A stretch of DNA of 64,000 bases, taken from an uncultured bacterium. GTDB lineage: Bacteria > Armatimonadota > Hebobacteria > CAIYQO01. Shown here piece by piece: positions 26,837 to 63,393 of the stretch; within the stretch, counting starts at the first letter, position 1, and each line of letters opens with the position of its first letter. The notes beneath the pieces are model-generated. The model searched no databases and had not been told where the DNA came from. It saw only the letters and a list, made by a program, of their open reading frames with translations. Location: positions 1,351 to 65,350 of the forward strand of contig CAIYQO010000229.1 in the NCBI GenBank assembly GCA_903928345.1, read 5' to 3'. A program made the translations under genes and the position numbers.

Positions 26837-26854
26837 GCGCGCTATAATGCCCGC

Positions 26855-36336: not shown

Positions 36337-36400
36337 AAATTGGGGACTGGCTCGAATTTTCACGGTGGATGATAGATGCCCTTTAATTTGTAACTGCTGC

Positions 36401-37197: not shown

Positions 37198-37314
37198 GTG
37201 TTACTACCGCCGCACAACCGCCCTCGCTTGTGAAGCCGGGCGCCTTCCCGCGTGCCTCCGACCCCGGTAGCATGGCAGGGAGCACCGCATTGGGTGCATA
37301 TGGGAGGAATGCGA

Positions 37315-37608: not shown

Positions 37609-37624
37609 GGAACAGGAAATAGGA

Positions 37625-37672
37625 AACAGGGAACGGGTTGGTGCGCTGGCACCAACCCGTTCCCTGTTTCCC
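37625..37672. terminator. Bidirectional terminator hairpin between the convergent DUF1540 and tlpA-like genes.
   Basis: aacagggaacgggttggtgc gc tggcaccaacccgttccctgtt gives about a 20-bp perfect stem. Confidence 0.6.
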
Positions 37673-37685
37673 GTTCCCAGTTCCC

Positions 37686-38231
37686 CTACTTCGTCTCGTC
37701 CGTCTTTTTCGGCGTTTCCGTGGTGACGTACTTGGCGAGGCGCGCTTCCAGATCCTTCCGCGGCAGGGCGCCGACGATCTTGTCGACCAGCTCGCCCTTG
37801 TCGTTCAGCACGAACTTGGTGGGCAGCCCCTGGGTGCTGAAGGTTTTCAGCGCGTCGTTCGTCGCGAAGACCACCGGGTAGTTGATCTTGTGCTCCGTGG
37901 CGAAGTCCTTCACGCCGTCCTTCTCTTCGTCCACCGACATGCCGATGATCTGCAGGTTCTTCTTGTCCTTGGTTGCCTGAGCTTGCATATCGACAAGGTC
38001 AGGAATTTCGCGCTGACAAAAGCCGCACCACGTGGCCCATTCGTCCACCACCACGACCTTGCCGCGATAATCCGACAGCTTCACCGTCTTGCCGTTGATA
38101 TCGGTGAAGGTGAAATCCACCACTTTCGCGTCCGTCTTTTTACCCGACCCGTCGGCGCGCATCACCGACACCCCGAATAACGCCACCACCGCAACCGCGA
38201 TAATGAGCGGCCAATACCCCAACTTCTTCAT
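37686..38231 (-). CDS. TlpA/ResA-like thiol-disulfide oxidoreductase (thioredoxin fold, membrane anchored or secreted).
   Basis: N-terminal hydrophobic segment followed by a thioredoxin fold with WATWCGFCQREIPDL (CxxC active site). Confidence 0.8.
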   Translation of the reverse strand: MKKLGYWPLIIAVAVVALFGVSVMRADGSGKKTDAKVVDFTFTDINGKTVKLSDYRGKVVVVDEWATWCGFCQREIPDLVDMQAQATKDKKNLQIIGMSVDEEKDGVKDFATEHKINYPVVFATNDALKTFSTQGLPTKFVLNDKGELVDKIVGALPRKDLEARLAKYVTTETPKKTDETK

Positions 38232-38252
38232 CGACGTCCCCTTTCGAACTCG

Positions 38253-39014
38253 TTACTTCGCCGCCCCGCGCAGGTGCGTGACGACGTGGTGCACCTTGGC
38301 CATGAGCAACTGATACGCATACGGCAGATTGGCATATTCGAGCTTCTGCGTCACCAGCAGCACCCCCATGACCAGCAACAGGATGCCGGAGACGATCTCG
38401 ATCGTCCGCATGTGCCGGGTGATCTTACCCAGCGATCCCAGGAAGAATTGCAAAAACATGGCCGCTAACAGGAACGGCACCGCGAGTCCGATGGTATAGG
38501 CGACCAATAAGCTCAGTTTGGCCGTGACCACGGTCATGCCCAGCACGCCGCTGAGGAACGGCCCGATGCACGGGCTCCACCCGAAGGCGAAGGCGGCCCC
38601 GATAAGCACCGCCCCGAAGACGCCCACCTTCTTCGTGTCCAGGTGAAAGCGTCGCTCCTGGAAGAGCATATTCAGGCGGAAGACCCCGAGCATGTGCAGC
38701 CCGAAGATCATGATGACCCCCGCGCCGATCCAGCTAAACGCCGTCTTCCACGCCTGCCCGGTGCTCGAAAACACCTCGACCAGCCCGCCCAACAGCAGCA
38801 CCACCACCAGGCTGAACCCGAGCATAAAGCCCAGCGCACTGCCGAGGAGCCGCCAGCGCGCGGCGCGCACGGCCTCCTGGTCCTGCATCTCCTCGAACGT
38901 CATGCCGGAGATGAGCGAGAGATACACCGGCACAATCGGCAACACGCACGGGGAGAAGAAACTCATAATCCCCGCCGCAACCGCAACAATCAGTGCCACC
39001 AGGGCACTCCCCAT
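38253..39014 (-). CDS. ccdA: Cytochrome c-type biogenesis protein CcdA / DsbD-family thiol:disulfide interchange membrane protein.
   Basis: Polytopic membrane protein with the two conserved Cys in SFFSPCVLP and FGWSPCIGP. Confidence 0.85.
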   Translation of the reverse strand: MGSALVALIVAVAAGIMSFFSPCVLPIVPVYLSLISGMTFEEMQDQEAVRAARWRLLGSALGFMLGFSLVVVLLLGGLVEVFSSTGQAWKTAFSWIGAGVIMIFGLHMLGVFRLNMLFQERRFHLDTKKVGVFGAVLIGAAFAFGWSPCIGPFLSGVLGMTVVTAKLSLLVAYTIGLAVPFLLAAMFLQFFLGSLGKITRHMRTIEIVSGILLLVMGVLLVTQKLEYANLPYAYQLLMAKVHHVVTHLRGAAK

Positions 39015-39267
39015 ATGACCCCCGTCCTCGGCGAGTCATGGAGCATCGCCGCAGTCACCTCGGTTGTTCCCGCCCCAGAGAGTCGGCAAACGCTCCGTGG
39101 CTATTGCATCAGTATATAGTTATAACTTCAAGTACCCACCATCGCGTGGAAAGAACGGTGGCATCGGTGCAATTCCGTGCGGATGGAGAGCCTGTCGTAG
39201 TATCGCGATATTGAGACATGGACCGATTGATGCTCTTTGATTCATGGGTATCGGTACGTTCTACGTG

Positions 39268-39444
39268 CTTGGCGATTGAAATCGCAGCTAGTTGGCCTCA
39301 TCGGCCAGGCGTCCCCCTACGGGGACGCGGTGGCGGTGAAAAACGTCAACACCCTCTTCCGCATCCCCGTCCGCGGAGGCGGACGGCTGGCGCGGAGTCG
39401 CCGAAGAGCTGCGCCTTCAGTCGCCGCGAACCCGCGAACCATAG
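39268..39444. repeat. Palindromic MITE-like element, same family, copy 2 (between ccdA and the DUF721 gene), inverted relative to copy 1.
   Basis: cttggcgattgaaatcgcagctagttggcctcatcggccaggcgtccccctacgggga...ctgcgccttcagtcgccgcgaacccgcgaaccatag matches the reverse complement of copy 1. Confidence 0.8.
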
Positions 39445-39620
39445 CAGCATTCAGGAATCAAAGAGCATAAATCGGTCAATTCATGCCCCCCTCACCCCAT
39501 TCACCCATTCACCCATTCACCCCGTCACCCCCTCACCCATTCACCCATTCACGCATGTACGCCGCGGCGCACATCCCGCCTCTTGGCAGGGAGCCGCTTG
39601 GCTGGTAGACTGGTTACAGT

Positions 39621-45000: not shown

Positions 45001-45242
45001 GTACTCGTAATCGACCCCCTGCCCCGAAGGGGCGTGCGATTATAGCCACGGGCGGAGCCCGTGGTATGCGGGACAGAAAACGTCCGAGCCCCGACGGGGC
45101 GACAGAACACGTGTCTGCCGCCCCGTCGGGGCTCGGTGTTTCCTCCGTACCCGACCACGGGCTGCGCCCGTGGCTAGCATCTGCGGCCCCTTCGGGGCAA
45201 TAGTCGATTACGAGCACGATTACGAGCACGAGCACGATTCCG
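45001..45242. repeat. Nested-palindrome element, family R2 (gccccgaaggggcg / ccacgggcggagcccgtgg / gagccccgacggggcgacag), copy 1.
   Basis: Outer IR tcgtaatcgac...gccccgaaggggcg / gccccttcggggc...gtcgattacgag. Homologous (about 80%) to 63201-63388. Followed by short tandem cacgattacgagcacgagcacgatt. Confidence 0.8.
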
Positions 45243-50217: not shown

Positions 50218-50605
50218 GCCCGGCTCGACCGCAGACAAGCGTAAGTGGACCAGCACTGTGTGGAAGCTCGACGGCAGTCGCGCGCCCGGCCGGAAATGAT
50301 AGTGCCCAGATCCGACAACATGTTACCGCAGACTTCAGCCTCAGAAAAGATCAGCTGGCCAATTCTGGCCCAACAGTTTACGCGAGAAGGAGGACAAGGA
50401 ATTCGTGCCGATCCTATAGAACTCTACCCAAACCGACAGGCCACGGCGACACCTGCCAGCAGATCAATGCACCAACAGGTCTATGCAGAGATAGACAACT
50501 AATTAAAACGCTATAATTGGTTGTCTTCCCCCAGATTACCTGTTCGAGCGACGTTGTATGCGCCTAAATGGTGCGGTATACCGATCTATTGGAAGGATGG
50601 TACCC

Positions 50606-51664
50606 ATGAACGACATCATTTGTAAGCGTGTAGTAATCTTGTTCCTCTTGTTGTCTCCCATTTTTGCGGCGATGACCTGCGCACAAACGATCGCGTATAG
50701 CCTGGACTCACAAATATGGGGCATGGATATGCACACACGACATAAATTTCTGCTCATCAACCCCCCAGGTGTGCTCCGTGAATCGATTGGCGCTCCCGCA
50801 TGGTTTCCTGACGGGAAAAAGATTGCCGCGGTGATTGATGGAGACATCTGGCTTGCCGATGTCCCGTCCAAACAAAGCCACATACTGGTTCGCGCTGACA
50901 ATAAACCGTGTATTGGCATTCCTGCATGGTCAAAAGATGGGAAGTCGCTGTATGTTGGCCGATTAAAGAATATCGAAAGTGATGGCGATGGTGGGTTGTG
51001 GCAGTTTAATGTGCGGGATGGGAAATCTCATATCGTAATTCAACCAGAAGACGTGGATTTGCCTATACATAATTATCCACTGGTTTCTGCGGACGGTCAT
51101 TATCTGATTTCGAGCGGAATGATAGACGGCGTCGCATCTTTTTACGCCATTGACTTTAAATCGAATACGCCGATAAAACTCCCGAATCAGCAAGTCTCTA
51201 ACTTTGTCACATGCTATGCATTCGATAAATCCTGTAAAATGCTTATTCTCGGAGAATATGCTGGCGATGGCCTGATGGGGAAAGGGCCGGGTGGCGTATG
51301 GCGGTGGGACCTTACCACCAATAGATGCTCGCCATTGTCGTTAAAAGGCCAGTCAATAGAAGAAATGTCTATCAGCCCGAATGGAAAACACATGATAATA
51401 CGTATTCAAAGTATCGTACGAGGAATAGAGAGACAATCGTCCTATCTCGCTACTACAACGGGAACGAAAGTGGCAAAGATCAAAGTGCCCGGCGATATGA
51501 GCCAAATTACCTGGTTGGATAACGACACCTTTGTCGCTGATAATGCACCCACAGGAGATCCAGATCACACGAATATCATTCGTTACAACACACGTACCGG
51601 CAAATCGCGTGTGCTGGTCAAAGGGGGGTATGGTGTCGCAGTCACCGGTGTCCGTGCGCATTGA
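50606..51664 (+). CDS. TolB-like / PD40 (WD40-like) beta-propeller periplasmic protein, encoded in an AT-shifted island.
   Basis: Signal peptide MNDIICKRVVILFLLLSPIFAAMTCA. PD40-like repeats (WFPDGKKIAAV, AWSKDGKSLYV, ISPNGKHMII). Local GC about 47% versus about 68% in the flanks. RBS GGAAGGA. Confidence 0.65.
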   Translation: MNDIICKRVVILFLLLSPIFAAMTCAQTIAYSLDSQIWGMDMHTRHKFLLINPPGVLRESIGAPAWFPDGKKIAAVIDGDIWLADVPSKQSHILVRADNKPCIGIPAWSKDGKSLYVGRLKNIESDGDGGLWQFNVRDGKSHIVIQPEDVDLPIHNYPLVSADGHYLISSGMIDGVASFYAIDFKSNTPIKLPNQQVSNFVTCYAFDKSCKMLILGEYAGDGLMGKGPGGVWRWDLTTNRCSPLSLKGQSIEEMSISPNGKHMIIRIQSIVRGIERQSSYLATTTGTKVAKIKVPGDMSQITWLDNDTFVADNAPTGDPDHTNIIRYNTRTGKSRVLVKGGYGVAVTGVRAH

Positions 51665-51791
51665 AGGCTCATGGGGCATGTCACCACCTACAAACCAAAC
51701 ACAACCACTTATATATTCTTACCCCACAAATGCCACTTTTCCTCACCCCCGCATCGTTGACGCCGCCCGCCCCATCTGCTACGCTACCGGC

Positions 51792-52652
51792 ATGGCGCTG
51801 ACACTCCTGAACGGCATGGCTGACCCCGACTTCCCCACCGCCTTGCGCGTGCATCAGGCGTGGGGGCTGCCCGTGCTGGACTTGAAGGACGGCATCTTCG
51901 GCAAGTACATCCTCGACCTTACCGACGACGAGGCCGCGCGTGCCGCCGACCTGGCCGCCGCCCACGGACTGACCGTCTATTGCCTCTCCACCACCCTCTT
52001 CCACGCCGCGGTGGAGGAGGGCGAGGCGGCCTTCCGCGCGGCGGCGCTGGCACCGGTGGACCGCGCCATCGCCGTGGGGCGCGCGCTGCAACCGCGCCTG
52101 ATTCGCCTGCTGGCGCCGCAGCTCCGCGCCCGCGCCGCGGTGGCCGACGGCGTATCCCACGTGCAGGCGCACCACCCCTGGCTGCTGCCCCTCTACCGCG
52201 AAGCCATCGACCGCCTGCAGGCCGCCGGCTTCCACGTGACCATCGAGAACGAGTGCGGCCAGTGCCTGCTGGGCTGCGCCGACGAAGCGCTGGCCTTTTT
52301 CGCCGCCCTCGACCGCCACAACGTGGGCTTCACCTGGGACATCCAGAACATGTGGGAGGTCGGCGCCGTGCCCACCCTCGACGCCTACACCGCCCTGCGC
52401 CCCCTGCTGGACTACGTGCACCTGAAGGGCGGGCAAAGCGACGGCGGCACCCGCCTGCGCTGGGCGAGCGCGCTGGAGGATGCCTCCTGGCCGGGGCTCG
52501 CCATCACCCGCCGCGTGGTGGCCGACGGCGTCAGCCCGGTGGTCTGCCTCAACCCCTCCCACGGCGCGCGCAAGCCGGGGTACGACTACGCCGACGTGAC
52601 GACGCGCGACCTGGCCTTCCTGCGCCGCGAGATTCCGGAGATCGACCGATGA
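51792..52652 (+). CDS. Sugar phosphate isomerase/epimerase (xylose-isomerase-like TIM barrel). Start uncertain.
   Basis: TIM-barrel family features (...[13 protein letters not shown]...YVHLKGGQ...). The N-terminal part of the ORF (from 51531) runs through the AT-rich junction. I picked ATG 51792, where GC composition returns to the genome average. Confidence 0.6.
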
Positions 52653-53719
52653 GCTACCAGCGCGACTTCCCCCGCCGCCTCAACGTGGCGCTGATCGGCG
52701 CGGGCTCCCACGCCTACCGCAACCTCCTCCCCGCGCTGACCTTCCTGCCCGTCACCCTGCGCGCGGTGTGCGACCTGGACGCCGCCCGTGCCGAGGCTAC
52801 CGCCCGCCAGTATGGCGCCGTACCCTACACCGACACCCGCGAGCTGTACGCCCGCGAGCGGCTGGACGCCGTGCTGCTCTGCGTCGGCCCCGGGCAACAC
52901 CCGGCGCTCGCGATGGACGCCTTCGCCGCCGGGCTGCACGTGTGGCTGGAGAAGCCGCCCGCCTTCCGCGCCGCCGAGGTGGCCGACATGCTGGCCGCAC
53001 GCGGCGACCGGGTGGCGGTGGTGGGCTTCAAGAAGGCCTTCATGCCCGCCACCGACAAGGCGTTGGAGTTCGCGCGCGACTTCGGCCCGCTGCGCAGCCT
53101 GCTCGCCGTCTACCCGATGAGCATCCCGACGGACGGCGCCACGGTGCTGCGCGAGCAGCACTTCACCAACTGGCTGGGCAACGGCTGCCACCCGCTCTCC
53201 TTCCTCCTCGCCGTGGGCGGGCCCGTCGTGGCCGTCACCGTGCACCGCGGCGCGCGCGGGGGCGGCGCCTGCGTGCTGGAGCACCGCGACGGCGCCGTGA
53301 GCACCCTGCACCTGGCCGACGGCGGCAACGGCACGCAACCGCTGGAGCGCTACACCTTGTTCGGGGAAAACGCGCACCTGGAGATCGAGAACGCGGGCCG
53401 CGTCACCCTGCAGCGCGGCATCCCCTTCGACTACGGCGTCACCACCACCTACGCGCCCCCCGGCACCGACAGCGGCGCCGTGGTGTGGGAAGCGCAGAAC
53501 ATGCTCGGGACGCTGGAAAACATGGCCCTCTTCACGCAAGGCATGTACGCCGAACTGCGCCACTTCTGCGACAGCGTGCTGGAAGGCCGCCCCGCCACCC
53601 GCGGCACCCTGGAGTTCGCCCTACACGTCATGCACGTCTACGAAGCCGCGCTGCTGTCGGAGGGCGGGCGGGTGGAAGTCGACGAAACCACAGATTTCAC
53701 AGATTTGCACAGAGTGTAG
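52649..53719 (+). CDS. Gfo/Idh/MocA family oxidoreductase.
   Basis: [15 protein letters not shown] Rossmann N-terminus, then EKPPA. ATG overlaps the upstream stop (ATGA). The last 10 or so codons are encoded by a cacagat-repeat element. Confidence 0.75.
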
Positions 53720-53765
53720 GGCCGGGTGGAAAGGCGACGATAGCGCTGGTTTGCTCTTGGTCACA

Positions 53766-53928
53766 CGTAAGAAAACCGCAAAGGCGCAAAGGACGCAAAG
53801 GAGACCGCAAAGATATTTTTCGATTTCGCACCGAGAAGGTTGCATTCGGTCACGGCGAACTGCCCAGACCCTACCCTCTTCTCTTTGCACGTCCTTTGTG
53901 TCCTTTGCGTCTTTGCGGTTTTCTTGCG
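53766..53928. repeat. Palindromic element with CGCAAAGG tandem motifs (family R-D), copy 1.
   Basis: gtaagaaaaccgcaaaggcgcaaaggacgcaaaggagaccgcaaag ... ctctttgcacgtcctttgtgtcctttgcgtctttgcggttttcttgc. The arms are inverted. Confidence 0.8.
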
Positions 53929-54031
53929 GAAATTTTGGGCACGAAGCGCCCATGGATGGCTGTGTGGAACAGGGCGCGAGCCCGGCTCGACCATACCAGC
54001 CGCCTGAATCCTGAATCTCGAAGGAGCAACC

Positions 54032-54391
54032 ATGCCTGCCAAAGTGATGACGCCCGAGGCGTATGCCGTTGACGTGACCCCGTGGGGGTCGCTGACCTGG
54101 TTCGTGAGCAAGGCGCTGGGGAATTCGGACACCCTGACCGTGGGGCGCTGCCTCATCCACCCGGGGTGCGCCAACCCGGTGCATGTGCACCCCAACTGCG
54201 ACGAAGTGCTGCACGTGCTGCAGGGGCGCGTCCGTCACAGCATGGGCGACGCCCACGCGGTGGAGATGGCCGTCGGCGACACGATCTCGGTGCCGATGGG
54301 GTTGGCGCACAACGCGACGAACATCGGCGACGAGGACGCGATCTGCCTCATCTCCTTCTCCTCGGCGGAGCGCAAAACGCTCAATGAGTAG
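54032..54391 (+). CDS. Cupin domain protein.
   Basis: Cupin motifs HVHPNCDEVLHVLQGR and GDTISVPMGLAHNATN. Confidence 0.65.
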   Translation: MPAKVMTPEAYAVDVTPWGSLTWFVSKALGNSDTLTVGRCLIHPGCANPVHVHPNCDEVLHVLQGRVRHSMGDAHAVEMAVGDTISVPMGLAHNATNIGDEDAICLISFSSAERKTLNE

Positions 54392-54854
54392 GACGGGTTA
54401 CCTCGCCGAGATTCGGGAGATAGTCGGCCACTATCCGCTGATCGGCATCGGTGCCACGGTGGTCGTCACCGACGACGCCGGGGCGGTGCTGCTGCAGTTG
54501 CGCTCCGACTTCGGCACCTGGGGCCTGCCCGGCGGCGCGATGGAGCCCGGCGAAACGCTGGAGGAAACCGCCCGCCGCGAGCTGTACGAGGAGACGGGCC
54601 TGCACGCCGGCCCGTTGCGCCTGCTCGGGGTGCTCTCCGGCCCGGAGTACTTCATCACCTACCCCAACGGCGACCAACTGCACTCGGTGTTCGTGCTCTA
54701 CCACGCGGAGACGGTCACTGGCGCGTTGCAGATGACCGACGGCGAAAGCCTCGCCCTCGCCTACTACCCGCTGGACGCGCTCCCCCCGCTGGACCCGCGC
54801 GTGGTACCGCTGGTGGCGTTCCTCAAAGAGCACCTGCAAGCCCACCACGTGTAA
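54384..54854 (+). CDS. NUDIX hydrolase.
   Basis: Nudix box GGAMEPGETLEETARRELYEETGL. Start overlaps the cupin gene stop by 8 nt. Confidence 0.75.
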   Translation: MSRTGYLAEIREIVGHYPLIGIGATVVVTDDAGAVLLQLRSDFGTWGLPGGAMEPGETLEETARRELYEETGLHAGPLRLLGVLSGPEYFITYPNGDQLHSVFVLYHAETVTGALQMTDGESLALAYYPLDALPPLDPRVVPLVAFLKEHLQAHHV

Positions 54855-55005
54855 AAGAAATGACCATTTCTTTACATGACGACCGTCTCATGTTAAAAAA
54901 TCCCCGTTTCTTTAACATGAGGCCCGTCTCCACCCTTCACCTTGTCACGCCGCGCGTCTGCCTGTATGATACGTTGACGCTAGTTATCGCCGGGAAAGGA
55001 TTACC

Positions 55006-56340
55006 GTGAGCGAGTTGACGGAGCACGCCCCCCCCGAGACAAAGCCACACATGTCGTCGTGGCGGCAAATGGCGCTCAGCCTGTATTGGTTCGCCGTGCA
55101 GGCGCAGTGGGCCACCATCCTCATCATCCTGCTGCCCGCGCAGGCGGCGAAGATCGGCGGCGAGGCCAACAAGGGCGGCACGCTGGGGATCATCCTTCTC
55201 GTCGGCGCCCTCGTCTCCATGGTCGCCGCACCCTTTGTCGGTGCGTGGAGCGACCGCGTGCGCACCCGCTGGGGACGCCGCAAACCCTTCATCGTGTGGG
55301 GTACGCTGGGCAACATCATCGGGCTGCTGGTGCTGGCGCGCATCCCCGCGGTGCCCGGCGCACTGCTGCCCTTCATCCTCGCCTTTGCATGGCTCGAACT
55401 GTTGAGCAACCTGGCCGCCGCGCCGTATTCCGCCCTCATCCCCGACGTGGTGCCCGTCGCGCAGCGCGGCGCGGCGAGCGGGTGGATGGGGTTGATGATG
55501 ATGCTCGGGAACCTGGCGGGCATCGCCTGCGGGTTGTTCGCCAAGCAACTCGGCGGCGACCAGGGGGCCTATATCCTCCTCGCCGTGCTGCTGCTGCTGG
55601 GCATGTTGAGCACCGTCTTCTTCGTGCAGGAACCGGAGCCCCCCGCGGTGCCGCCCTTCTCGCTGCGCGAGTTCGGGCGCGGGATGCTGGAGCCCTTCGC
55701 CGCCTTCGACTTCCGCTGGGTCTTCCTCACCCGCTTCCTGGTGATGCTCGGGACCTTCACCGTGCAGGAATTACTGCAATACTACATGCGCGACATCATC
55801 GCCGGGGGCAAGGAAGTCTTCACTTACCTGCACAGCTTCCTTGGCCAGCCGGTGATCGATGCCAAGGGTGCCGCCGCCGTCTTCTCGCTCATGCTCCTCC
55901 TCGGCGCGGTGCTCAGCACCTTCTTCGCCGGCTCGCTCTCCGACCGCTACGGGCGCAAGCTGATGGTGTACCTCAGCGGCGCGATGCAGGGCGGGGCGAC
56001 GATCATCCTGCTCTTCATCGGGCAGTACCAGCTCGCGCTGCTGCTCGGGTTGCTCTTCGGCATCGGCTACGGCGCGTATCAAGCGGTGGACTGGGCGCTG
56101 GTCACCGACGTGTTGCCCCATGCCGAGGACAACGCCAAGGACATGGGAGTATGGCACATCGCCGTCACCCTGCCGCAGGTCATCGCCACGCCCATCGCCG
56201 GACTGCTGCTCGACAAGGGGCAGCACTTCGGGCAGGCGCACGGCGCGCCCAACCTGGGCTACACGGTGGTCTTTGTCATCGCCTTCGTCTATTTCCTCCT
56301 CGGCACCGTGCTGGTGCGGAAAATTAAAGGGGCACGCTGA
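55006..56340 (+). CDS. lplT: MFS transporter, lysophospholipid transporter LplT-like.
   Basis: 12-TM MFS protein immediately upstream of, and translationally adjacent to, an Aas-like gene, as in the E. coli lplT-aas operon. GTG start with RBS AAAGGA. The functional call rests on synteny. Confidence 0.65.
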   Translation: MSELTEHAPPETKPHMSSWRQMALSLYWFAVQAQWATILIILLPAQAAKIGGEANKGGTLGIILLVGALVSMVAAPFVGAWSDRVRTRWGRRKPFIVWGTLGNIIGLLVLARIPAVPGALLPFILAFAWLELLSNLAAAPYSALIPDVVPVAQRGAASGWMGLMMMLGNLAGIACGLFAKQLGGDQGAYILLAVLLLLGMLSTVFFVQEPEPPAVPPFSLREFGRGMLEPFAAFDFRWVFLTRFLVMLGTFTVQELLQYYMRDIIAGGKEVFTYLHSFLGQPVIDAKGAAAVFSLMLLLGAVLSTFFAGSLSDRYGRKLMVYLSGAMQGGATIILLFIGQYQLALLLGLLFGIGYGAYQAVDWALVTDVLPHAEDNAKDMGVWHIAVTLPQVIATPIAGLLLDKGQHFGQAHGAPNLGYTVVFVIAFVYFLLGTVLVRKIKGAR

Positions 56341-56342
56341 CC

Positions 56343-58994
56343 ATGCTGAAGTGGTTCTTCCGCATCTTCGCGTCATGGGCGCTGCGACGCCGGTACCGTA
56401 TAGAGATCACCGGCCTGGAGGAGATCCGCGCGCACGGCACGCGCGGGGTGATCTTCCTGCCCTGCCATCCCGCCTTCATCGACCCGGTGATCGTCTTCAC
56501 CACGCTGATGAAGGACTTCATGCCGCACACCATCGCGGATTCCAACGCGGTGGCGGCGCCGGGCATCAAGCAGCTCACCGCGCATTTCGGCGTGCGCACC
56601 ATCCCCTCGGTGGCACGCTACGGCGAGGCCGCGCGCGCGGAAGTGCAGCGCGTGCTGGAATCCGTCGGCCAGGAGCTGGAAGCGGGCGAGAACGTGCTGC
56701 TCTACCCCAGCGGGCGCCTGATGAGTTCGAACCAGGAAGCCGTGGGCGCCAACAGCGCGGTGGAGACGATCCTGCGCCACGCCCCCCACGCCCGCGTGGT
56801 GCTGCTGCGCACGCGCGGCCTGTGGGGCAGCAGCTTCAGCACCGCGCCCTACAACGGGCTGGAGCCCAGCCTGCCCGGGCAACTGCTGCGCGGCGTCGGC
56901 GTGGTGCTCGCCAACCTTTTCGCCTTCACCCCCCGGCGCCGCGTGACGCTGGAGTTCGCCGAACCCGCCGACCTGCCGCGCGACGCCGACCGGGCGACGA
57001 TGAACCGCTATATTGAAGCGTTCTACAACGTCGAACCGCTGCCGCGCAACACCTACGTGCCATATTACTGGTGGCAGGGATCGACTCCACAGGAGCGCCC
57101 CGAGCCGCAGCGCGGCATCGCCGCCGGCGACCTGTCGGTGGTGCCGTCCGCCACACGGACCATCGTCACCGAGTACCTGCGGAAGGCGAGCGGGCTGACG
57201 GTCATCCGCGACGACGCGGAGCTGGCGCGTGACCTGAACCTGGACAGCCTGGCGCGCGCGGAATTGCTCGTCTGGCTGGAGGGCGAGTTCGGCTCCGCCC
57301 CGGCAAACACCGACGCGCTGCGCTCGGTGGCCGACGTGCTGCTGGCCGCCAGCGGCGAAGCGGTGGGCGGCGGCGACGATTTCGTGCGCATCACCCCGCC
57401 GGAGAAGTTCTTCGCCGGCACCTCCGCGCGCCGTGTGCAGGTGCCCGACGCCGCCACGGTGACGGAAGCCTTCCTGCGCCAGGCCGCCGCGCACCCGGAT
57501 CAGCCCATCATAGCTGATCAGAGCAGCGGCGTGAAGACGTACCGCGACCTGATCACCGGCATCTTCGCGCTCCTCCCCGCGGTGCGCGCGCTGCCCGGCG
57601 ACGCGGTGGGCATCATGCTCCCCGCCTCGGTGGCGGCGAACCTGGTCTACCTCACCGGGCTCTTTGCCGGCAAAACGCCGGTGATGATCAACTGGACGGT
57701 GGGGGCGCGCACCCTGCAGCACACGCTGACGCAGACGGGCACGCAGCGCATCCTCACCGCGCAGGCGCTGCTGGCGAAACTGGGCACGCAGGGGATCGAC
57801 CTCGGCCCGCTGCAGGACGCCTTTGTGCCGTTGGAGACGCTGGCGGCGGGGCTCTCGACGGGCACCAAGCTGCGCGCGGCGCTGGCCGCACGGCTGAGCT
57901 GGGGCGCGCTGTGGCGCGCGCCGGTGGGACCGACGGCCGCCATCCTCTCCACCAGCGGTTCGGAAAGCCTGCCCAAGGCGGTGCCGCTCACCCACGCCAA
58001 CGTGCTCACGAACCTGCGCGACGTGCTCTCCCGCATCGAGTTGACGGATAACGACCGCCTGCTCGGGATGCTGCCGCCCTTCCACTCCTTCGGCCTCACC
58101 GCCAACATGCTCTTCGCGCTCTGCGCCGGCATGCGCACGGCCTATCATACCAACCCCACCGAGGGCGCGCTGCTGGCGCGGCTCATTGCCGCCTACCGTG
58201 TCACGTTGCTCCTCGGCACGCCCACCTTCCTGTACGGCATCCTGCGCGCCGCCACGCCGGAGCAGCTCGCCACGCTGCGCCTGGCCGTCACCGGCGCCGA
58301 GGAGTGCCCGCCGCGCGTTTATGCCACCCTCGCCGAGTGCGCCCCGCAGGCGGCCGTGCTCGAAGGCTACGGCATCACCGAAGGCTCACCCATTGTGGCA
58401 CTGAACGATTACGACCACCCGAAGCCCGGCACCATCGGTCGCGTGCTGCCCTCGCTGCAATACGCCATCGTGGACGTGGAGACGAACGCCGCCACCGCGC
58501 CGGGCGCCCAGGGCATGTTGCTGCTGCGCGGCCCGAGCATTTTCGGCGGTTACCTGGGCGACGCGCCGTCGCCCTTTGTGGAGTATCAGGGCGCGCAATG
58601 GTACCGCACCGGCGACCTGGTAACGGAGGACGCCGACGGCATCCTCACCTTCCGCGGCCGGCTGAAGCGCTTCGTGAAGATCGGCGGCGAGATGATCTCC
58701 CTGCCTGCCATCGAGGCGGTGCTGCAGACGCTGGCCGCCCCCGCCACCGAGGAGGAAGGCCCTTCCATCGCCGTGGTGGCCACCGAGAACGCCGAACGCC
58801 CCGAGCTGGTGCTCTTCACCACCCGCCCCATCACCCGCGACGCCGCCAACGCCCACCTGCGCGACGCCGGCCTCAGCGGCCTCTCCAACCTCCGCCGCGT
58901 CATCCCGGTAGAGACCATCCCCGTCCTCGGCACGGGGAAGACGGATTACCGGGCGCTGCAGGGGCGGCTGGCGACGGAAGTGTCTGAGGGATAA
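56343..58994 (+). CDS. aas: Aas-like tri-domain protein: PlsC-type acyltransferase, embedded carrier-protein (PP-binding) domain, and acyl-ACP synthetase (AMP-binding).
   Basis: HX4D acyltransferase motif FLPCHPAFIDP. PP-binding signature DLNLDSLARAELLVWLE. C-terminal AMP-binding domain (ILSTSGSESLPKAVPLTHANV, TGDLV, GRLKRFVKIGGEMI). Confidence 0.8.
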   Translation: MLKWFFRIFASWALRRRYRIEITGLEEIRAHGTRGVIFLPCHPAFIDPVIVFTTLMKDFMPHTIADSNAVAAPGIKQLTAHFGVRTIPSVARYGEAARAEVQRVLESVGQELEAGENVLLYPSGRLMSSNQEAVGANSAVETILRHAPHARVVLLRTRGLWGSSFSTAPYNGLEPSLPGQLLRGVGVVLANLFAFTPRRRVTLEFAEPADLPRDADRATMNRYIEAFYNVEPLPRNTYVPYYWWQGSTPQERPEPQRGIAAGDLSVVPSATRTIVTEYLRKASGLTVIRDDAELARDLNLDSLARAELLVWLEGEFGSAPANTDALRSVADVLLAASGEAVGGGDDFVRITPPEKFFAGTSARRVQVPDAATVTEAFLRQAAAHPDQPIIADQSSGVKTYRDLITGIFALLPAVRALPGDAVGIMLPASVAANLVYLTGLFAGKTPVMINWTVGARTLQHTLTQTGTQRILTAQALLAKLGTQGIDLGPLQDAFVPLETLAAGLSTGTKLRAALAARLSWGALWRAPVGPTAAILSTSGSESLPKAVPLTHANVLTNLRDVLSRIELTDNDRLLGMLPPFHSFGLTANMLFALCAGMRTAYHTNPTEGALLARLIAAYRVTLLLGTPTFLYGILRAATPEQLATLRLAVTGAEECPPRVYATLAECAPQAAVLEGYGITEGSPIVALNDYDHPKPGTIGRVLPSLQYAIVDVETNAATAPGAQGMLLLRGPSIFGGYLGDAPSPFVEYQGAQWYRTGDLVTEDADGILTFRGRLKRFVKIGGEMISLPAIEAVLQTLAAPATEEEGPSIAVVATENAERPELVLFTTRPITRDAANAHLRDAGLSGLSNLRRVIPVETIPVLGTGKTDYRALQGRLATEVSEG

Positions 58995-58996
58995 TC

Positions 58997-59205
58997 CTTT
59001 GGGAGGGCGAGCGTACCCGCGAGCCACGAGAACAGCGCCGACGGCGAGGTTAGGGCTCGTAGTAACGTCGCAGCGCAGCAAGGCGCGTCTATCACATCGA
59101 AGATGTGAGGGGGCAACGGCCCTTGCTGCGCTGCGAGCCTACTACGAGCCCGATAACTACGACGCTTATCTGTGCGGCTCGCGGGTACGCTCGCCCTCCC
59201 AAACG
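58997..59205. repeat. Family R1 palindromic element, copy 2, directly after the aas stop codon.
   Basis: tttgggagggcgagcgtacccgcgagcc ... ggctcgcgggtacgctcgccctcccaaa, with nested internal inverted repeats (ctcgtagtaacgtcgcagcgcagcaagg / ccttgctgcgctgcgagcctactacgag). Confidence 0.75.
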
Positions 59206-59223
59206 GGGTATACTACACAGCGC

Positions 59224-59445
59224 ATGAAGGACTACCACATCAACATCTTCTATAGCGAGGCGGATGGCGGGTATATCGCGGATATTCCCGATCTGACCTA
59301 TTGCTCGGCGTTCGGCCACACACCGGCGGAAGCGCTGGCGGAGGTCGAGCGCGCCAAGGCCGCCTGGCTGGAAGCCGCGCGCGAGGCCGGCAAGCCCATC
59401 CCGCCGCCGCAGTACCGCCCGGCGATCTATCAGGCGGCAGGCTAA
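59224..59445 (+). CDS. HicB-like / UPF0150-family small protein (putative orphan antitoxin-like).
   Basis: MKDYHINIFYSEADGGYIADIPDLTYCSAFGHTPAEALAEVERAKAAWLEAA matches the HicB_N/UPF0150 fold pattern. No HicA partner is visible nearby. Confidence 0.6.
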   Translation: MKDYHINIFYSEADGGYIADIPDLTYCSAFGHTPAEALAEVERAKAAWLEAAREAGKPIPPPQYRPAIYQAAG

Positions 59446-59544
59446 CCGGCAGGCGCGGGCTTGCCATCACTTTCCCCGCAGTCAACCCTTTTATTGCCCC
59501 ACCCCGTGCCACGCCGCGCGAAAAGCTGTATAATAGGGCTGGCT

Positions 59545-60273
59545 ATGACACCTCTATCCCCGGCACGCATTGCCCTGATCACCGGCGCGGGGCGCGGCAT
59601 CGGTCGCGCCATTGCGCGGGCACTGGCACAGCAAGGTTACCACCTGGCCCTCTCCGCCCGCCGTCGCGCGGGGCTGGAGGAGACCGCCGCGCTGGTGCAC
59701 GACGCCGGCGGCACCACCGACCTTTTCCCCGCCGACCTGTGCGAGCCCGACGCCGCCGCCCGACTGATCGGCGACGTGGTGGCCACGTGCGGCGGGCTGG
59801 ACGTGCTGGTGAACAACGCCGGGCAACTGCTGGTGAAACCCTTCGCCGAGACCACCCTCGAAGAGTTCGACCGCCTGCTCGCCGTCAACCTGCGCGCCCC
59901 TTTCGCCCTTACGAAAACGGCGCTGCCCCACCTTGCGGAGCGCCATGGGGCGGTGATCAACATCGCCAGTAGCGCGGGCAAGCGGTACTACGCCAACCAG
60001 TCCGCCTACTGCGCCACCAAGCACGGTCTGCTCGGGCTGAACAAGGTGCTCGCCAAAGAGTTGCGCGCCCATGGCGTGCGCGTGCATGCCGTCTGCCCCG
60101 GCGGCGTCTACACCGAGATGACGACCCAGCATCAGGCGAACTGGCGCGAAGAAGACCTGATGAGCCCGCACGACGTGGCCGCAGCCGTCGTCTACCTCCT
60201 CGCCCTCTCCCCCCGCGCCACCGTCGATGAGTTGCCCATGCGCCGCGTGCCGGCAGAACCGGTTTGGGGATAA
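59545..60273 (+). CDS. SDR family oxidoreductase.
   Basis: TGAGRGIGRAIA (TGxxxGxG), NNAG, and catalytic S...YxxxK (YCATK). Confidence 0.8.
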   Translation: MTPLSPARIALITGAGRGIGRAIARALAQQGYHLALSARRRAGLEETAALVHDAGGTTDLFPADLCEPDAAARLIGDVVATCGGLDVLVNNAGQLLVKPFAETTLEEFDRLLAVNLRAPFALTKTALPHLAERHGAVINIASSAGKRYYANQSAYCATKHGLLGLNKVLAKELRAHGVRVHAVCPGGVYTEMTTQHQANWREEDLMSPHDVAAAVVYLLALSPRATVDELPMRRVPAEPVWG

Positions 60274-60280
60274 TTTTTTT

Positions 60281-60440
60281 CACCGCAAAGACGCAAAGAA
60301 CGCGAAGGAGGCACAAAGAAAGATTTTCAAAGGGATAAATGCTGCATGAGCGTTGGCCAAGCGCCCTGTTTCTAAGCATGCAAGCACCTCCTTATTTCTT
60401 CTCTTCGCGCAATCTTTGCGTCCTTTGCGCCTTTGCGGTT
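60281..60440. repeat. Family R-D element (CGCAAAGG motifs), copy 2, immediately upstream of the MDR dehydrogenase gene.
   Basis: caccgcaaagacgcaaagaacgcgaaggaggcacaaag ... cgcgcaatctttgcgtcctttgcgcctttgcggtt. Confidence 0.8.
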
Positions 60441-60471
60441 AACTCCGTACCTTATGAGTGAGGAACCAACT

Positions 60472-62235
60472 ATGACCGACTTATTGTCCCGCTATCGCGC
60501 GGCTGAATACGCGCTGCCGACTGAGCAGCGCACGTGGTTTTTGTACGGCGCCGGGATGGAGAACCTGGGTAAGAACGGCCAACCCGTGCCGGACACGGTG
60601 CCGTCGCCCAGTGCCGATGAGCTGCTGGTGCGCTGCGATGCCACCGGGCTGTGCTTCTCGGACATCAAAATCCTCAACCAGGGTGGCGAGCACGTGCGCA
60701 TCAAGCCGCGCGACCTGTCCGTCAACCCCGTCGTGATGGGCCACGAGTCGGTGGTCACCGTGGTGGCGGTGGGCGAGAACCTGCGCGGCAAATTCGCCGT
60801 CGGCGAGCGCTACATCGTGCAGGCGGACATCTACGTCAACGGCAAAACCTTCGCCTACGGCTACGTGCTCACCGGCGCGCTGACCCAGTACGAGACGATG
60901 GGCTGGCAGGTGCTCGACGGTGACGACGGGTGCTACCTGATCCCCGTGAAGCCCTCCACCGGTTATGCCGAGGCCGCCCTCACCGAGCCGTGGGCGTGCG
61001 TGGTGCACAGCTATGTGCTCGAGTACCGCCAGCACGTGAAGCCGGGCGGCGTCACGCTGATGATCGGCGGCACCGGCGCGGAGAAGCTCACGCTGGGCGC
61101 CACCTTCACCGGCCATAAGCCCGCGCGCATCGTGGCGGCGAAACTGCCCGCCGATCTGCTCGCCGCCGTGCAGGCGGTCGGCGCCGAGGTGATCGAGGTC
61201 GCGTGCGGCGACGGCTGCCCCGGCGTGGATGCCCTGGTGGCGCTGCACACCGACGGCGCGGGCTTCGACGATATCATCGTGTGCGGCCAGGTGGGCGACG
61301 ACTGCCTGGAGAAGTTGGCGGGCAAGCTGGCGCGCGCCGGCGTGCTCAACATCGTGTGCGACCAGCCCACCGGACGCGCCTTCGGCGTCGACGTGGGGCG
61401 CGTGCATTACGAGGACTGGTACTACTGCGGCAACCCCGGGCCGGACATCAGCGCCTCCTACGGCGTGCACCGCGTGCCGACGCAGCTCAAGCCCGGCGGC
61501 AGCGCGTGGTTCCTCGGCGCCGGCGGCCCGATGGGGCAGATGCACGTGCAGCGCGCCTGCGAGATGCCCAACGGCCCCAGCGTCATCGTGGCCTCCGACA
61601 TCGATCCCGATCGCCTGCAGGAGCTGCGCGACCGCTTCATCCCCGCCGCGCAGGCCCACGGACGCACGCTGGTGGTGCTCAACCCGAAGGAATACACCCC
61701 CGAAGAGTTCGACCGCAAGCTGTGCGAGTACTCCTCCGGCTGCGGCTTCGACGATGTGGTGGCGCTGGTGCCCGTGCCCGTGCTCATCGAGCAGGCGGCG
61801 GCCCACGTGGGCTACGGCGGGCTGCTCAACGTTTTCGCCGGCGTCGCCCGCGGCACGCTCTGCCAGTTCAAGCTGGAAGACATCTACCAGCGCAACATCC
61901 GCTGGGTCGGCTCCTCCGGCTCGAAGATCAGCGACATGCGCGAGACGCTGCGCCTGGCCGAGAGCGGCGAGCTGCTCACCGGCAACGCCGTGGCGGCCAT
62001 CGGCGGCCTCAACGCCGTCTACCACGGCCTCGAACTGGTCAAAGGCCAGGCGGTGCCGGGCAAGATCGTCATCTATCAGCAGATCGAAGACCTGCCCATC
62101 ACCCGCCTCACCGAGTTGAAGGACACCCTGCCCACCGTCGCCGCCAAGCTGCGCGACGGCAAGTACTGGACCCGCGAAGCCGAAGACGAGCTGCTGCGCC
62201 TGAAGCTGCACCTGCCCGCCGCGGTGGAAGCGTAA
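60472..62235 (+). CDS. Long (about 590 aa) zinc-binding dehydrogenase (MDR) family protein with a C-terminal extension.
   Basis: GHESVVTVVAVGE (GHE motif), CFSDIK, NAD-binding GAGGPMG. Start chosen at ATG 60472 (GAGGAA 6 nt upstream). Confidence 0.7.
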   Translation: MTDLLSRYRAAEYALPTEQRTWFLYGAGMENLGKNGQPVPDTVPSPSADELLVRCDATGLCFSDIKILNQGGEHVRIKPRDLSVNPVVMGHESVVTVVAVGENLRGKFAVGERYIVQADIYVNGKTFAYGYVLTGALTQYETMGWQVLDGDDGCYLIPVKPSTGYAEAALTEPWACVVHSYVLEYRQHVKPGGVTLMIGGTGAEKLTLGATFTGHKPARIVAAKLPADLLAAVQAVGAEVIEVACGDGCPGVDALVALHTDGAGFDDIIVCGQVGDDCLEKLAGKLARAGVLNIVCDQPTGRAFGVDVGRVHYEDWYYCGNPGPDISASYGVHRVPTQLKPGGSAWFLGAGGPMGQMHVQRACEMPNGPSVIVASDIDPDRLQELRDRFIPAAQAHGRTLVVLNPKEYTPEEFDRKLCEYSSGCGFDDVVALVPVPVLIEQAAAHVGYGGLLNVFAGVARGTLCQFKLEDIYQRNIRWVGSSGSKISDMRETLRLAESGELLTGNAVAAIGGLNAVYHGLELVKGQAVPGKIVIYQQIEDLPITRLTELKDTLPTVAAKLRDGKYWTREAEDELLRLKLHLPAAVEA

Positions 62236-62243
62236 AGAAAGAA

Positions 62244-62396
62244 CGAAACCACAGATTACACAGATTTTCACAGATAAGTTGCTCCGCACTGGTCGAGCCA
62301 AGCGGAACAATAGGGAGATCAGCCCGTGAAATCCTTCACTCGGCATCGGTAGATCCCCTAAAAATCAGTGAAAATCTGTGAAATCTGTGGTTTCAC
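62244..62396. repeat. Palindromic element with cacagat(t) tandem motifs (family R-E), immediately downstream of the MDR dehydrogenase gene.
   Basis: gaaaccacagattacacagattttcacagat ... atcagtgaaaatctgtgaaatctgtggtttcacc. A half-copy gaaaccacagatttcacagatttgcacagagtg at 53685-53717 forms the 3' end of the MocA-family gene. Confidence 0.8.
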
Positions 62397-62414: not shown

Positions 62415-63191
62415 ATGAACACATTGCAAGGCAAAATTGCCATCGTCACCGGCGCCGGGCAGGGACTCGGCGAAGCCATTGCGCGGCGGTTGGCGGCGGA
62501 GGGCTGCATCGTCGGCGTGGCCGACATGAACGGTCCGGCGGCGGAAGCCGTGGCGGCGTCGCTGCCCGGCGGTATGGCCTTTCCCGTGGACGTGACCAAC
62601 GAGGCGCAGGTGGCGGCGATGGTCGAGGCCGTAGTGGCGAAGCACGGGCGGTTGGACATCATGGTGCCCAACGCCGGCATCCTCATCGCCGAGGGCATCG
62701 AGGACGCCGACGTGGCCAAGTGGCGCAAGGTGATCGACGTCAACCTGATCGGCAACATGATCTGCTGCAAGCACGCCGCGCGCGCCTTCATCGCGCAAAA
62801 GAGCGGCGCCATCGTGGCGATCAACTCGAAGTCCGGCAAAAAGGGCTCCTTCCGCAACAGCGCCTATGCCGCCTCCAAATTCGGCGCCATCGGCCTCATC
62901 CAGTCCGTCGCCCTCGAACTCGCCCCCTACGGTGCCCGCGCCAACGCCATCTGCCCCGGCAACCTGCTCGACGGCACGCTGTGGCAGAACAGCCTCTTCG
63001 AACAGTACGCCAAAAACCGCGGCATGTCGGTGGAGGACGTGAAGAAGCACTACGAAGGCCAGGTGCCCCTGGGCCGCGGCTGCCAGTACGACGACGTCTG
63101 CAACACCGTCGTCTTCCTCGCCAGCGACGCCAGCAGCTACCTCACCGGGCAAGCGCTGAACGTCGACGGCGGGCAGACGATGAGCCCGTAG
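62415..63191 (+). CDS. SDR family oxidoreductase (sorbitol-6-phosphate dehydrogenase-like).
   Basis: TGAGQGLGEAIA, NAG, and S...YAASK catalytic triad. RBS AAAGGA. Confidence 0.8.
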   Translation: MNTLQGKIAIVTGAGQGLGEAIARRLAAEGCIVGVADMNGPAAEAVAASLPGGMAFPVDVTNEAQVAAMVEAVVAKHGRLDIMVPNAGILIAEGIEDADVAKWRKVIDVNLIGNMICCKHAARAFIAQKSGAIVAINSKSGKKGSFRNSAYAASKFGAIGLIQSVALELAPYGARANAICPGNLLDGTLWQNSLFEQYAKNRGMSVEDVKKHYEGQVPLGRGCQYDDVCNTVVFLASDASSYLTGQALNVDGGQTMSP

Positions 63192-63200: not shown

Positions 63201-63388
63201 CCCCTTGCCCCGAAGGGGCGCGCGATGCTAGCCACGAGCGGGAGCCCGTGGTCCGACGGCCCGTAAATTCCGAGCCCCGACGGGGCGACAGACGATGTAT
63301 CTGCCGCCCCGTTGGGGGCTCGATTTTCTACGCTACCGGGACCACGGGCTCACGCCCGTGGCTCGCGGGGACGCTCGCCCTCCCAAAG
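63201..63388. repeat. Family R2 element, copy 2, carrying a family R1 terminus (ggctcgcggggacgctcgccctcccaaa) at its 3' end.
   Basis: gccccgaaggggcgcgcgatgctagccacgagcgggagcccgtgg...gagccccgacggggcgacagacg...ctgccgccccgttgggggctcg...ccacgggctcacgcccgtggctcgcggggacgctcgccctcccaaagg. Confidence 0.8.
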
Positions 63389-63393
63389 GAGAA

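Follow-up and report, generated by a model that had tools for sequence, protein, structure and literature searches.

We analyzed a 64-kb window (64,000 nucleotides of contig CAIYQO010000229.1, from an uncultured Armatimonadota bacterium) that carries two copies of a palindromic repeat termed R-D (R-D1 and R-D2), one complete copy of a related repeat termed R-E, and a lone R-E arm at the end of an oxidoreductase gene. R-D and R-E are gene-less members of a hairpin class that crosses phyla, and the arms are the conserved heritable part of this class. At other loci, arms of the same type enclose a gene encoding a GxxExxY protein, a predicted nuclease. We conclude that R-D and R-E are probably gene-less (non-autonomous) copies of a widespread selfish hairpin ("foldback") element that contains the GxxExxY gene in its full-size form.

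The three complete elements are 150-164 nt long, with arms of 31-41 nt that are 78-94% complementary and are built from tandem units, three to four CGCAAAGR units in R-D and three CACAGATTW units in R-E. The arms of R-D1 (53766-53802 and 53892-53928; 37 nt each, 92% complementary) are separated by a gap of 89 nt, those of R-D2 (60279-60319 and 60402-60442; 41 nt each, 78% complementary) by 82 nt, and those of R-E (62245-62275 and 62364-62394; 31 nt each, 94% complementary) by 88 nt. The R-D arm pattern CCGCAAAGRCGCAAAGRAC has four matches in the window versus 0.06 expected, and the R-E arm pattern GAAACCACAGATTWCACAGAT has three versus 0.00 expected. Single-strand folding compared with shuffled sequences gave z scores of -12.1 for R-D1, -4.7 for R-D2, and -9.9 for R-E. 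The outer edges are AAAACC...GGTTTT (R-D1), TTCACC...GGTTAA (R-D2), and GAAACC...GGTTTC (R-E), with an ACC/GGT core common to all three. The likeness between R-D1 and R-D2 is confined to the arms, their ~85-nt centres being unrelated, and the centres of R-D1, R-D2, and R-E showed no similarity to anything in 1.5 Mb of related loci.

R-D2 and R-E lie on either side of a gene encoding a medium-chain dehydrogenase/reductase (MDR), in the spacers that separate it from two short-chain dehydrogenase/reductase (SDR) genes. The first base of R-D2 is 6 nt past the SDR stop codon and its last base is 30 nt before the MDR start codon, while R-E begins 9 nt past the MDR stop codon and ends ~20 nt before the ATG of the next SDR gene. 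A previous interpretation of the window made from the letters of the DNA (the sequence-only reading) had located all of the R-D and R-E pieces at, or a few bases from, the positions given here, and its distances to the MDR gene agree with ours. Its length of 600 aa for the MDR protein counts from an upstream TTG; the protein has 587 aa from the ATG at 60472, as does P0241. The same reading took R-D and R-E for two separate families. Given their common outer ACC and their unit shape, C-R-C-A-R-A-K, the two are instead variants of a single arm type, ACC-(RCNRAK+1-2 nt)n.

Table 1 Features of the window discussed in the text.
Feature	Position	Strand	Description
Gfo/Idh/MocA oxidoreductase gene	52649-53719	+	356 aa; Pfam PF01408, E 3e-18
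Lone R-E left arm	53684-53714	+	GAAACCACAGATTTCACAGATTTGCACAGAG; in-frame reading gives 10 residues of the Gfo/Idh/MocA tail
R-D copy 1 (R-D1)	53766-53928	.	tandem CGCAAAGR units, outer AAAACC/GGTTTT, unique 89-nt centre
22-nt centre fragment of another hairpin family (25403-25547 / 26678-26834)	53965-53986	.	blastn 95% to 25448-25469, 91% to 26717-26738
CCTGAAT x2 tandem remnant	54003-54017	.	unit family GGATTCA/AGGATTCA
SDR gene upstream of R-D2	59461-60273	+	Pfam adh_short, E 7e-56
R-D copy 2 (R-D2)	60279-60442	.	arms TTCACCGCAAAG...CTTTGCGGTTAA, unique 82-nt centre; occupies the whole SDR-MDR spacer
MDR-type zinc dehydrogenase gene	60472-62235	+	587 aa; Pfam ADH_N, ADH_zinc_N; identical to database protein P0241
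Complete R-E element	62245-62394	.	arms GAAACCACAGATTWCACAGAT..., 88-nt centre; occupies the whole MDR-SDR spacer
Second SDR gene, downstream of R-E	62415-63191	+	Pfam adh_short_C2, E 2e-54

We scanned one genome per species for the 20-nt R-D arm pattern, a census whose counts are lower bounds. The arm ACCGCAAAGRCGCAAAGRAC was found in at least 117 species genomes versus ~4 expected (our own estimate, for 1.2e12 positions). The loci listed come from at least 18 phyla and range from 31 to 69% G+C, and the matches include the isolates Calothrix NIES-2100, Thiocapsa roseopersicina DSM 217, and Psychroflexus planctonicus. Most of the listed loci have an inverted partner and the outer edge TCACC...GGTGA, around unrelated centres of ~15-190 nt. 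Hairpins of the R-E type were found in Brocadiaceae, in Ca. Leptofilum, in a Persicobacter replicon, and in 14 IMG/VR contigs. Overall, these arms are present in phage contigs as well as in at least 18 phyla. A BLAST search of plasmids returned no match for R-D and one empty hairpin, from Persicobacter, for R-E.

The consensus of 129 elements of the class has the outer edge (T)T(C/A)ACC...GGT(G/T)A(A), of which all three window elements have the ACC/GGT core; their flanking T/A positions vary as they do within the class. The window elements also have, like the class, at least three tandem 8-9 nt RCNRAK(+1-2 nt) units and the same unit type in both arms. The segment between the arms can be anything from ~10 to ~250 nt of unrelated sequence or, in the full-size form, a gene, and elements fall into two size groups, of 50-250 nt and of 400-500 nt, the interval of 300-400 nt being empty. 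The number of units and the arm length differ between copies. Whole-element copies with similar centres exist inside single genomes, e.g. in loci L038 and L110 and in the window itself (25416-25540 and 26685-26809). The ends GAAAACC/GGTTTTC, TTCACC/GGTTAA, and GAAACC/GGTTTC, as read from the sequence, misfit the R''/R' boxes of integron attC sites (RYYYAAC...GTTRRRY).

At three R-D loci, the arms enclose an open reading frame (ORF) of 125-130 aa that encodes a GxxExxY protein (TIGR04256, E 1e-42; Pfam PDDEXK_3, E 3e-41). All five GxxExxY ORFs present in the 117 R-D loci listed lie tightly between tandem-unit arms; for one of these five genes (Geopsychrobacteraceae, L089 2480-3080) the arms consist of GGGATGA units, the family of a window hairpin at 12935-13294. 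An unbiased set was then composed of 80 metagenome loci chosen solely for encoding a GxxExxY relative (PF13366, PD-(D/E)XK), with 79 evaluable genes. Flanking inverted repeats with a score of at least 14 were found for 55 of these 79 genes versus 2 of 395 shuffled controls. Nearly all of the arms consist of TTCACC followed by three RCNRAG-type units (CGCAAAG, CACAGAG, CACGGAG, CGCCGAG, and similar); the R-D unit CGCAAAG surrounds 8 of 49 genes and CACAGAG 13 of 49. The gene begins ~6-30 nt past the left arm and finishes ~5-25 nt short of the right arm; the full-size element, with its 120-130-codon gene, totals ~440-500 nt. For 24 of 49 GxxExxY proteins, the arm unit is the same as that of the nearest-neighbour protein, versus 8.3 expected (0 of 2000 permutations); arm type therefore follows protein similarity, indicating that the gene and its arms are inherited together. 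Empty and gene-bearing R-D elements stand side by side in L045. Degenerate cargo was also seen: in L084 (1349-1730), intact R-D arms surround a GxxExxY gene that is interrupted by an in-frame stop, and in L045 (6677-7087) a truncated GxxExxY gene has kept a single arm.

The GxxExxY protein has an invariant triad, D68/E78/K80 (D...ExK). When its AlphaFold2 model (predicted local distance difference test score 93.8) was compared with the PDB, all fold matches were weak and none reached E <= 0.001; the top ones are mostly PD-(D/E)XK nucleases (lambda-exonuclease-like proteins, Cas4, and a splicing endonuclease). The protein is thus predicted to be a minimal PD-(D/E)XK nuclease. The family (PF13366/TIGR04256) is very abundant, with at least 8000 candidates scored, all at E <1e-5; PF13366 is listed as of unknown function and has undergone multiple horizontal transfers (PMC3424549).

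These results can be set against a purely local origin, in which slippage builds the tandem units and template switching inverts them, so that hairpins arise repeatedly in place without mobility or a dedicated protein. Such a process would fit the over-representation of heptamer and octamer simple-sequence repeats in many bacteria and their differences in length between close relatives (PMC4692102), the variation in unit number and arm length between copies, and the lack of target-site duplications. It cannot yield 20-mers that match exactly, outer edge included, across many phyla (at least 117 genomes), nor the association with a single protein family (55/79 versus 2/395), the co-diversification of arms and protein, or whole-element copies with similar centres such as those of L038, L110, and the window. 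Contamination as the source of the cross-phylum arms is argued against by the matches in isolate genomes. A local, enzyme-free origin is strongly disfavoured and, in our opinion, very improbable.

The nearest named relatives of the MDR protein come from Armatimonadota metagenome-assembled genomes (MAGs), and the spacers around the MDR gene differ among the related loci. In two independent assemblies of the same organism with an identical MDR gene (L222 1-30 and L223 1-70) the contigs end within the right arm or the centre of R-D2, as expected for a multi-copy repeat. Short-read assemblies appear to break at tandem-unit hairpins; contigs of merely 0.5-2 kb also carry many of the GxxExxY proteins in the database. 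In L224 (MDR 87% identical), the SDR-MDR spacer holds other tandem units instead of R-D, and the MDR-SDR spacer holds R-E at the same site, the entire element being inverted. In the window, the R-E left arm is the reverse complement of the L224 right arm at 31 of 31 positions, and the two centres align in the flipped orientation only (score 66 versus 16, with shuffles reaching at most 30). The arms are identical at 60 of 62 positions (97%), whereas the centre is ~73% identical with a 19-nt indel, close to the 75-79% of third codon positions; the arms are thus maintained and the centre drifts in a nearly neutral manner. The MDR-SDR spacer of L226 (80% identical) is 64 nt long and hairpin-free, and both spacers of L227 (78% identical) hold other hairpin families. 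Elements were therefore gained, lost, or replaced in these spacers. Thus, an element can flip in place, and elements come and go in operon spacers between relatives.

The maintenance of the R-E arms raises the question of a benefit to the host. The elements could be sites of RNA processing or stability (e.g. RNase III stems) or arrays for global regulators, kept by host selection, in which the cargo genes merely lodge. Consistent with such a role, R-E arms are 97% conserved at an orthologous site around a drifting centre, the elements sit exactly between genes of the same direction and do not cover the ribosome-binding site of the downstream gene, and regulator binding and translational roles have been proposed for the Geobacter paired sites (PMC2700814) and the TAACTGA repeats (PMC4679880), respectively. 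In contrast, stem mismatches show no G·U bias for the sense strand (47 versus 44), and RNA-level selection on that strand was rejected on this basis. A known RNA family was rejected as well, with no Rfam match at the gathering score for R-D or R-E; at E values up to 1, the sole match was to a plant miRNA-precursor model, which hit R-D1 on both strands and is spurious. Nor do the elements resemble intrinsic terminators, given the absence of a T tract after the R-D2 and R-E stems and the lack of an excess of terminator-like sites (7 versus 6.2 in shuffles). Since the spacer is empty in L226 and contains unrelated families in L224 and L227, the operon needs no particular element. Horizontal spread is a better fit than host service for arms that are identical in phage contigs and across at least 18 phyla, at 31-69% G+C, and arm type co-diversifies with the cargo protein. 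For these reasons, we regard a host-serving function as unlikely.

About half of the 30 window spacers longer than 45 nt hold a strong palindromic element, so the bracketing of the MDR gene by R-D2 and R-E needs no special cause. The sequence-only reading had singled out the repeat-bracketing of dehydrogenase genes; such bracketing is expected by chance from the element density, and the same spacers are empty or hold other families in relatives. It had also suggested that R-D and R-E target each other or mark a common recombination site. The co-location itself is borne out: units of the R-D and R-E types are adjacent or nested in unrelated genomes (L034, L088, L120, L024, L085, and L105), an inner hairpin is present in 10 of 51 larger centres versus 0 of 255 shuffles, and R-E has flipped. 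In contrast, R-D and R-E are not independent families and targeting of insertion is unsupported. Nesting can be three deep, as in L024 4334-4550 and L085 6745-6987 (MAG "bacterium RI_153"), where R-D arms enclose CCACAGATT/GGATTC-unit arms that in turn enclose GCGGATTG- or CACGGATTT-unit arms. L024 also contains ACTGGGG units (2683-2802), the complement of the cyanobacterial short tandemly repeated repetitive (STRR) sequence STRR1. In the window, the large hairpin at 12935-13294, with 71-nt arms of GGGATGA-type units, has a second hairpin (13150-13228) nested in its centre.

Flipping and nesting could also take place if the elements were passive landing pads, i.e. if the arms were portable homology blocks whose contents are swapped or flipped by host RecA alone and the cargo genes were passengers. 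Conserved arms around unrelated centres, the R-E flipped in place, the nested hairpins, the occurrence of two unrelated cargo families in the same architecture (see below), and the absence of target-site duplications are all compatible with such cassettes. Left unexplained are the first arrival at an arm-free site (R-E is present in the window versus an empty 64-nt spacer in L226) and the preference of each cargo family for its own arm type. Moreover, homologies of 30-40 bp, the size of the arms, are near the lower limit for RecA recombination. Altogether, landing pads seem quite improbable.

We return to the selfish element with a GxxExxY gene in its full-size form. A possible mechanism, to which we give slightly less than even credence, involves a GxxExxY nuclease whose gene lies elsewhere: by acting on the units or on the extruded hairpin, it would drive copying, exchange, and inversion in which the arms supply the homology. 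The elements would be selfish DNA, and the gene-less copies would depend for their maintenance or movement on such a nuclease, supplied in trans from another place in the genome. This nuclease would recognise the repeated units or the hairpin/cruciform and then start a break, and the repair of the break would use the 30-40 bp arms as homology, resulting in homing-like copying, cassette exchange, or inversion. Hairpin loops and spacers just past stop codons would be the preferred landing sites.

Several points weigh against this interpretation. Neither a GxxExxY nor a four-helix-bundle gene was found in the 64-kb window or in ~40 kb from relatives, and a nuclease acting in trans in the source genome is unproven; the nuclease activity, its substrate, and mobility are predicted only. 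The R-D and R-E arms of the window enclose no GxxExxY gene, hence their classification as gene-less copies, and R-E-type (CACAGAT) arms surround no cargo gene among the loci examined; the link of R-E to the GxxExxY class would come from its architecture and from the close CACAGAG variant. A profile search of the six-frame translations of all empty elements gave no GxxExxY remnants in their centres, indicating that empty elements are not simple recent deletion derivatives, and the view of these centres as decayed GxxExxY genes was rejected. Target-site duplications, proposed earlier as a check for this window, were lacking in 129 elements, which, relative to shuffled pairings, were not enriched in direct repeats of 2-5 nt at offsets 0-5. 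Finally, no pair of closely related genomes shows a fresh insertion, and the presence of R-E at one site across ~13% protein divergence also fits a host function.

One consequence of the arms can be seen in the Gfo/Idh/MocA gene. It ends with a repeat-derived tail of 12 codons (53681-53716) followed by a stop codon (53717-53719), and 10 of the 12 residues are the lone R-E arm read in frame. This arm is identical at 30 of 31 positions to the left arm of the R-E element in L224. The 18 closest aligned homologues (62-75% identical) stop at ...GxRVxV/I plus 0-3 residues, i.e. at 53680, where the R-E arm starts, and the tail is present in 0 of 18. Therefore, the repeat supplied the tail. The sequence-only reading had proposed precisely that a half copy of R-E provides the last ~10 codons of this gene and has remodelled the C-terminus of its product, naming orthologues with the same terminal residues as the contrary outcome; the proposal holds, with homology stopping at the start of the arm and the tail absent in 18 of 18 homologues.

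In a syntenic relative (L213; AP-endonuclease-like, Gfo, cupin, and creatininase genes), a different palindromic repeat occupies the same spot and adds ~49 aa to the ORF; a CGCGAGCGTCCCGCGAGC repeat related to G+C-rich palindromes of the window extends the Gfo ORF there (2460-2730). In L212, the Gfo gene stops normally and a degenerate CACAAAGG-type array is found 25 nt further on. The residues after RVxV are hypervariable across the Gfo family. Among 36 candidate ORFs running into R-D or R-E arms, nearly all were spurious frames of high-G+C DNA and a single case was verified, the DinG-type helicase of Thiorhodococcus minor (L081), whose C-terminus is a lone R-D arm (...EEVIG followed by TAKAQRTPRDSKID and the stop codon). 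The purine-rich strand of the arms, as read from its sequence, is free of stop codons in all frames, and read-through tails arise for this reason. Lone arms thus occur and can be read through, one of them being the source of the Gfo/Idh/MocA tail of 12 residues.

The spacer downstream of this gene (53720-54031) is a mosaic of repeat debris that includes the lone R-E arm, R-D1, the 22-nt fragment of the 25403/26678 family, and the CCTGAAT doublet. A right arm for the lone R-E copy was sought downstream of R-D1 and nothing convincing was found, only the 22-nt fragment of the other family; an insertion of R-D into R-E at 53.7 kb was rejected accordingly. Units of the GGATTCA/AGGATTCA family, to which the doublet belongs, form hairpin arms in L227 and also surround a four-helix-bundle gene in L047.

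A parallel exists for genes encoding the four-helix-bundle "23S rRNA IVS protein" (IVS, intervening sequence; TIGR02436). All nine genes examined (9/9) lie between tandem 7-8-mer arms, of unit types other than those of GxxExxY genes. AGGAAAC/AGGGAAC units make up the arms of some of these genes and also form a window hairpin at 37608-37685, a near-perfect 78-nt palindrome of GGAAACA/GGGAACA heptamers; this unit family flanks TIGR02436 genes in the IMG/VR loci L218 and L220. We tentatively suggest, with less confidence than for the GxxExxY element itself, that tandem-unit hairpins constitute one large, essentially undescribed bacterial selfish superfamily with arms of 7-9 nt units, propagated by the small protein that they enclose. 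Within this superfamily, the GxxExxY nuclease would serve the TCACC(RCNRAK)n arms and Avd-like four-helix-bundle proteins would serve the purine-rich heptamer arms. If true, such a superfamily would place under one mechanism the cyanobacterial STRRs, the heptamer and octamer "regulator sites" of Xanthomonas and Geobacter, the intervening sequences of rRNA, and orphan genes, in the thousands, for GxxExxY and four-helix-bundle proteins. The GxxExxY family would also gain a first function, that of a nuclease for homing or transposition directed at hairpins or cruciforms.

GxxExxY and four-helix-bundle (TIGR02436) proteins are very abundant and without known function (PMC3424549), and the paired tandem repeats of Geobacter, Xanthomonas, Beggiatoaceae, and cyanobacteria, first noted as long as 35 years ago, have likewise lacked an explanation. 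Repeats and genes together make up a single unit, which crosses phyla, turns over in operon spacers, flips, breaks metagenome assemblies, and rewrites C-termini; both questions are therefore experimentally testable. For annotation, this unit accounts for many of the short "hypothetical proteins" of high-G+C genomes and for many unusual C-terminal tails there.

Other repeats were noted in the window. Two GGGGAATG-unit hairpins (25403-25547 and 26678-26834), which also share their centres (125 nt, 80% identical), flank a minus-strand gene at 25543-26841, and a long CCCATTCA x7.6 array at 39496-39556 has a unit complementary to that of this hairpin family. Two G+C-rich palindromic families have nested inner hairpins, one at 22334-22484, 58998-59203, and 63353-63390 (GGGAGGGCGAGCGTCCCCGCGAGCC...) and the other at 45020-45199 and 63205-63366 (TGCCCCGAAGGGGCG...CCACGGGC...). 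Inverted repeats of ~240 nt (36371-36607 and 39225-39473; 82-84% complementary) surround 2.6 kb with three genes (37234-39035), a segment that could be an invertible or transposon-like unit. Another inverted repeat of 238 nt (2315-2552 and 5768-6005; 76% complementary), in or beside coding regions 3.2 kb apart, may consist of inverted paralogous gene segments. A stretch of 1.4 kb (50291-51764), possibly of foreign origin, has 47-49% G+C in a window of 66% G+C and overlaps a gene for a PD40/WD40-like beta-propeller (50558-51664). The only Rfam match in the window is an Acido-Lenti-1 RNA (RF01687; 20213-20258, + strand; 47.3 bits versus a gathering score of 37), just upstream of a gene starting near 20237.

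Among known systems, MITEs (miniature inverted-repeat transposable elements) are short, non-coding, multi-copy elements with terminal inverted repeats, of which larger relatives with the same ends carry a gene, and eukaryotic Foldback elements have ends made of short tandem repeats and variable centres. At 150-164 nt, R-D and R-E are likewise short and non-coding with terminal inverted repeats. Unlike in MITEs and Foldback elements, there is no target-site duplication, the centres differ between copies, and the genes enclosed by the same arms encode a 125-aa PD-(D/E)XK protein, not a recognised transposase. Repetitive extragenic palindromic sequences (REPs) and bacterial interspersed mosaic elements are abundant intergenic palindromes just after gene ends, and other elements (IS1397-type) insert in the loops of these palindromes. 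The elements described here are similar in being intergenic palindromes that nest, with an inner hairpin in 10 of 51 larger centres. REPs are single palindromes of 20-40 nt with a GTAG head and are tied to HUH Y1 transposases (RAYT), whereas R-D and R-E arms consist of tandem arrays and are linked to a protein of the PD-(D/E)XK fold.

As with homing endonuclease genes, a small nuclease gene lies in the middle of a symmetric site and splits it, gene-less and degenerate copies coexist (L084, L045), and the distribution of GxxExxY is patchy and reflects horizontal transfer (PMC3424549). Unlike homing endonuclease genes, there is no intron or intein context, empty sites contain, in place of an intact target, a long centre of unrelated sequence, and the GxxExxY system is known here from sequence alone. 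A 23S rRNA IVS, e.g. that of Coxiella, carries a small gene (S23p ORF) or nothing within a long stem of inverted repeats and is considered a selfish insertion (PMC4990558); with its S23p ORF, it is the one known case of a gene in a hairpin. Similarly, four-helix-bundle genes outside rRNA are enclosed by tandem-unit inverted arms. R-D and R-E differ in that they are located in mRNA spacers rather than rRNA helices, are ORF-free and lie between protein-coding genes, and have an arm type linked to GxxExxY rather than to the four-helix-bundle protein.

The closest resemblance is with paired tandem repeats described genome by genome: those of Geobacter metallireducens, which are paired tandem hepta- and octanucleotides of classes 1-4 proposed as "global regulator binding sites" (PMC2700814), the Xanthomonas GGGAATC repeats with 70-75 convergent pairs (PMC4692102), the TAACTGA repeats, and the cyanobacterial STRR heptamers. 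Like R-D and R-E, which are intergenic inverted pairs of at least three tandem units, they consist of 3-5 tandem 7-8 nt intergenic units, often in inverted pairs, that could form stem-loops or cruciforms, lie close to the end of the upstream gene, and are found in distant lineages. Unlike for R-D and R-E, the descriptions are per genome and leave the function open (regulator sites, G-quadruplexes, or translation), and they contain neither a link to GxxExxY or four-helix-bundle genes nor the TCACC(RCNRAK)n arm type. In the literature searched, no paper was found on R-D, R-E, or related arm sequences (12 searched as text) or on a GxxExxY link. Paired tandem repeats themselves are thus already known; what is new relative to the literature is the link to a cargo gene and the identity of the arms across phyla.

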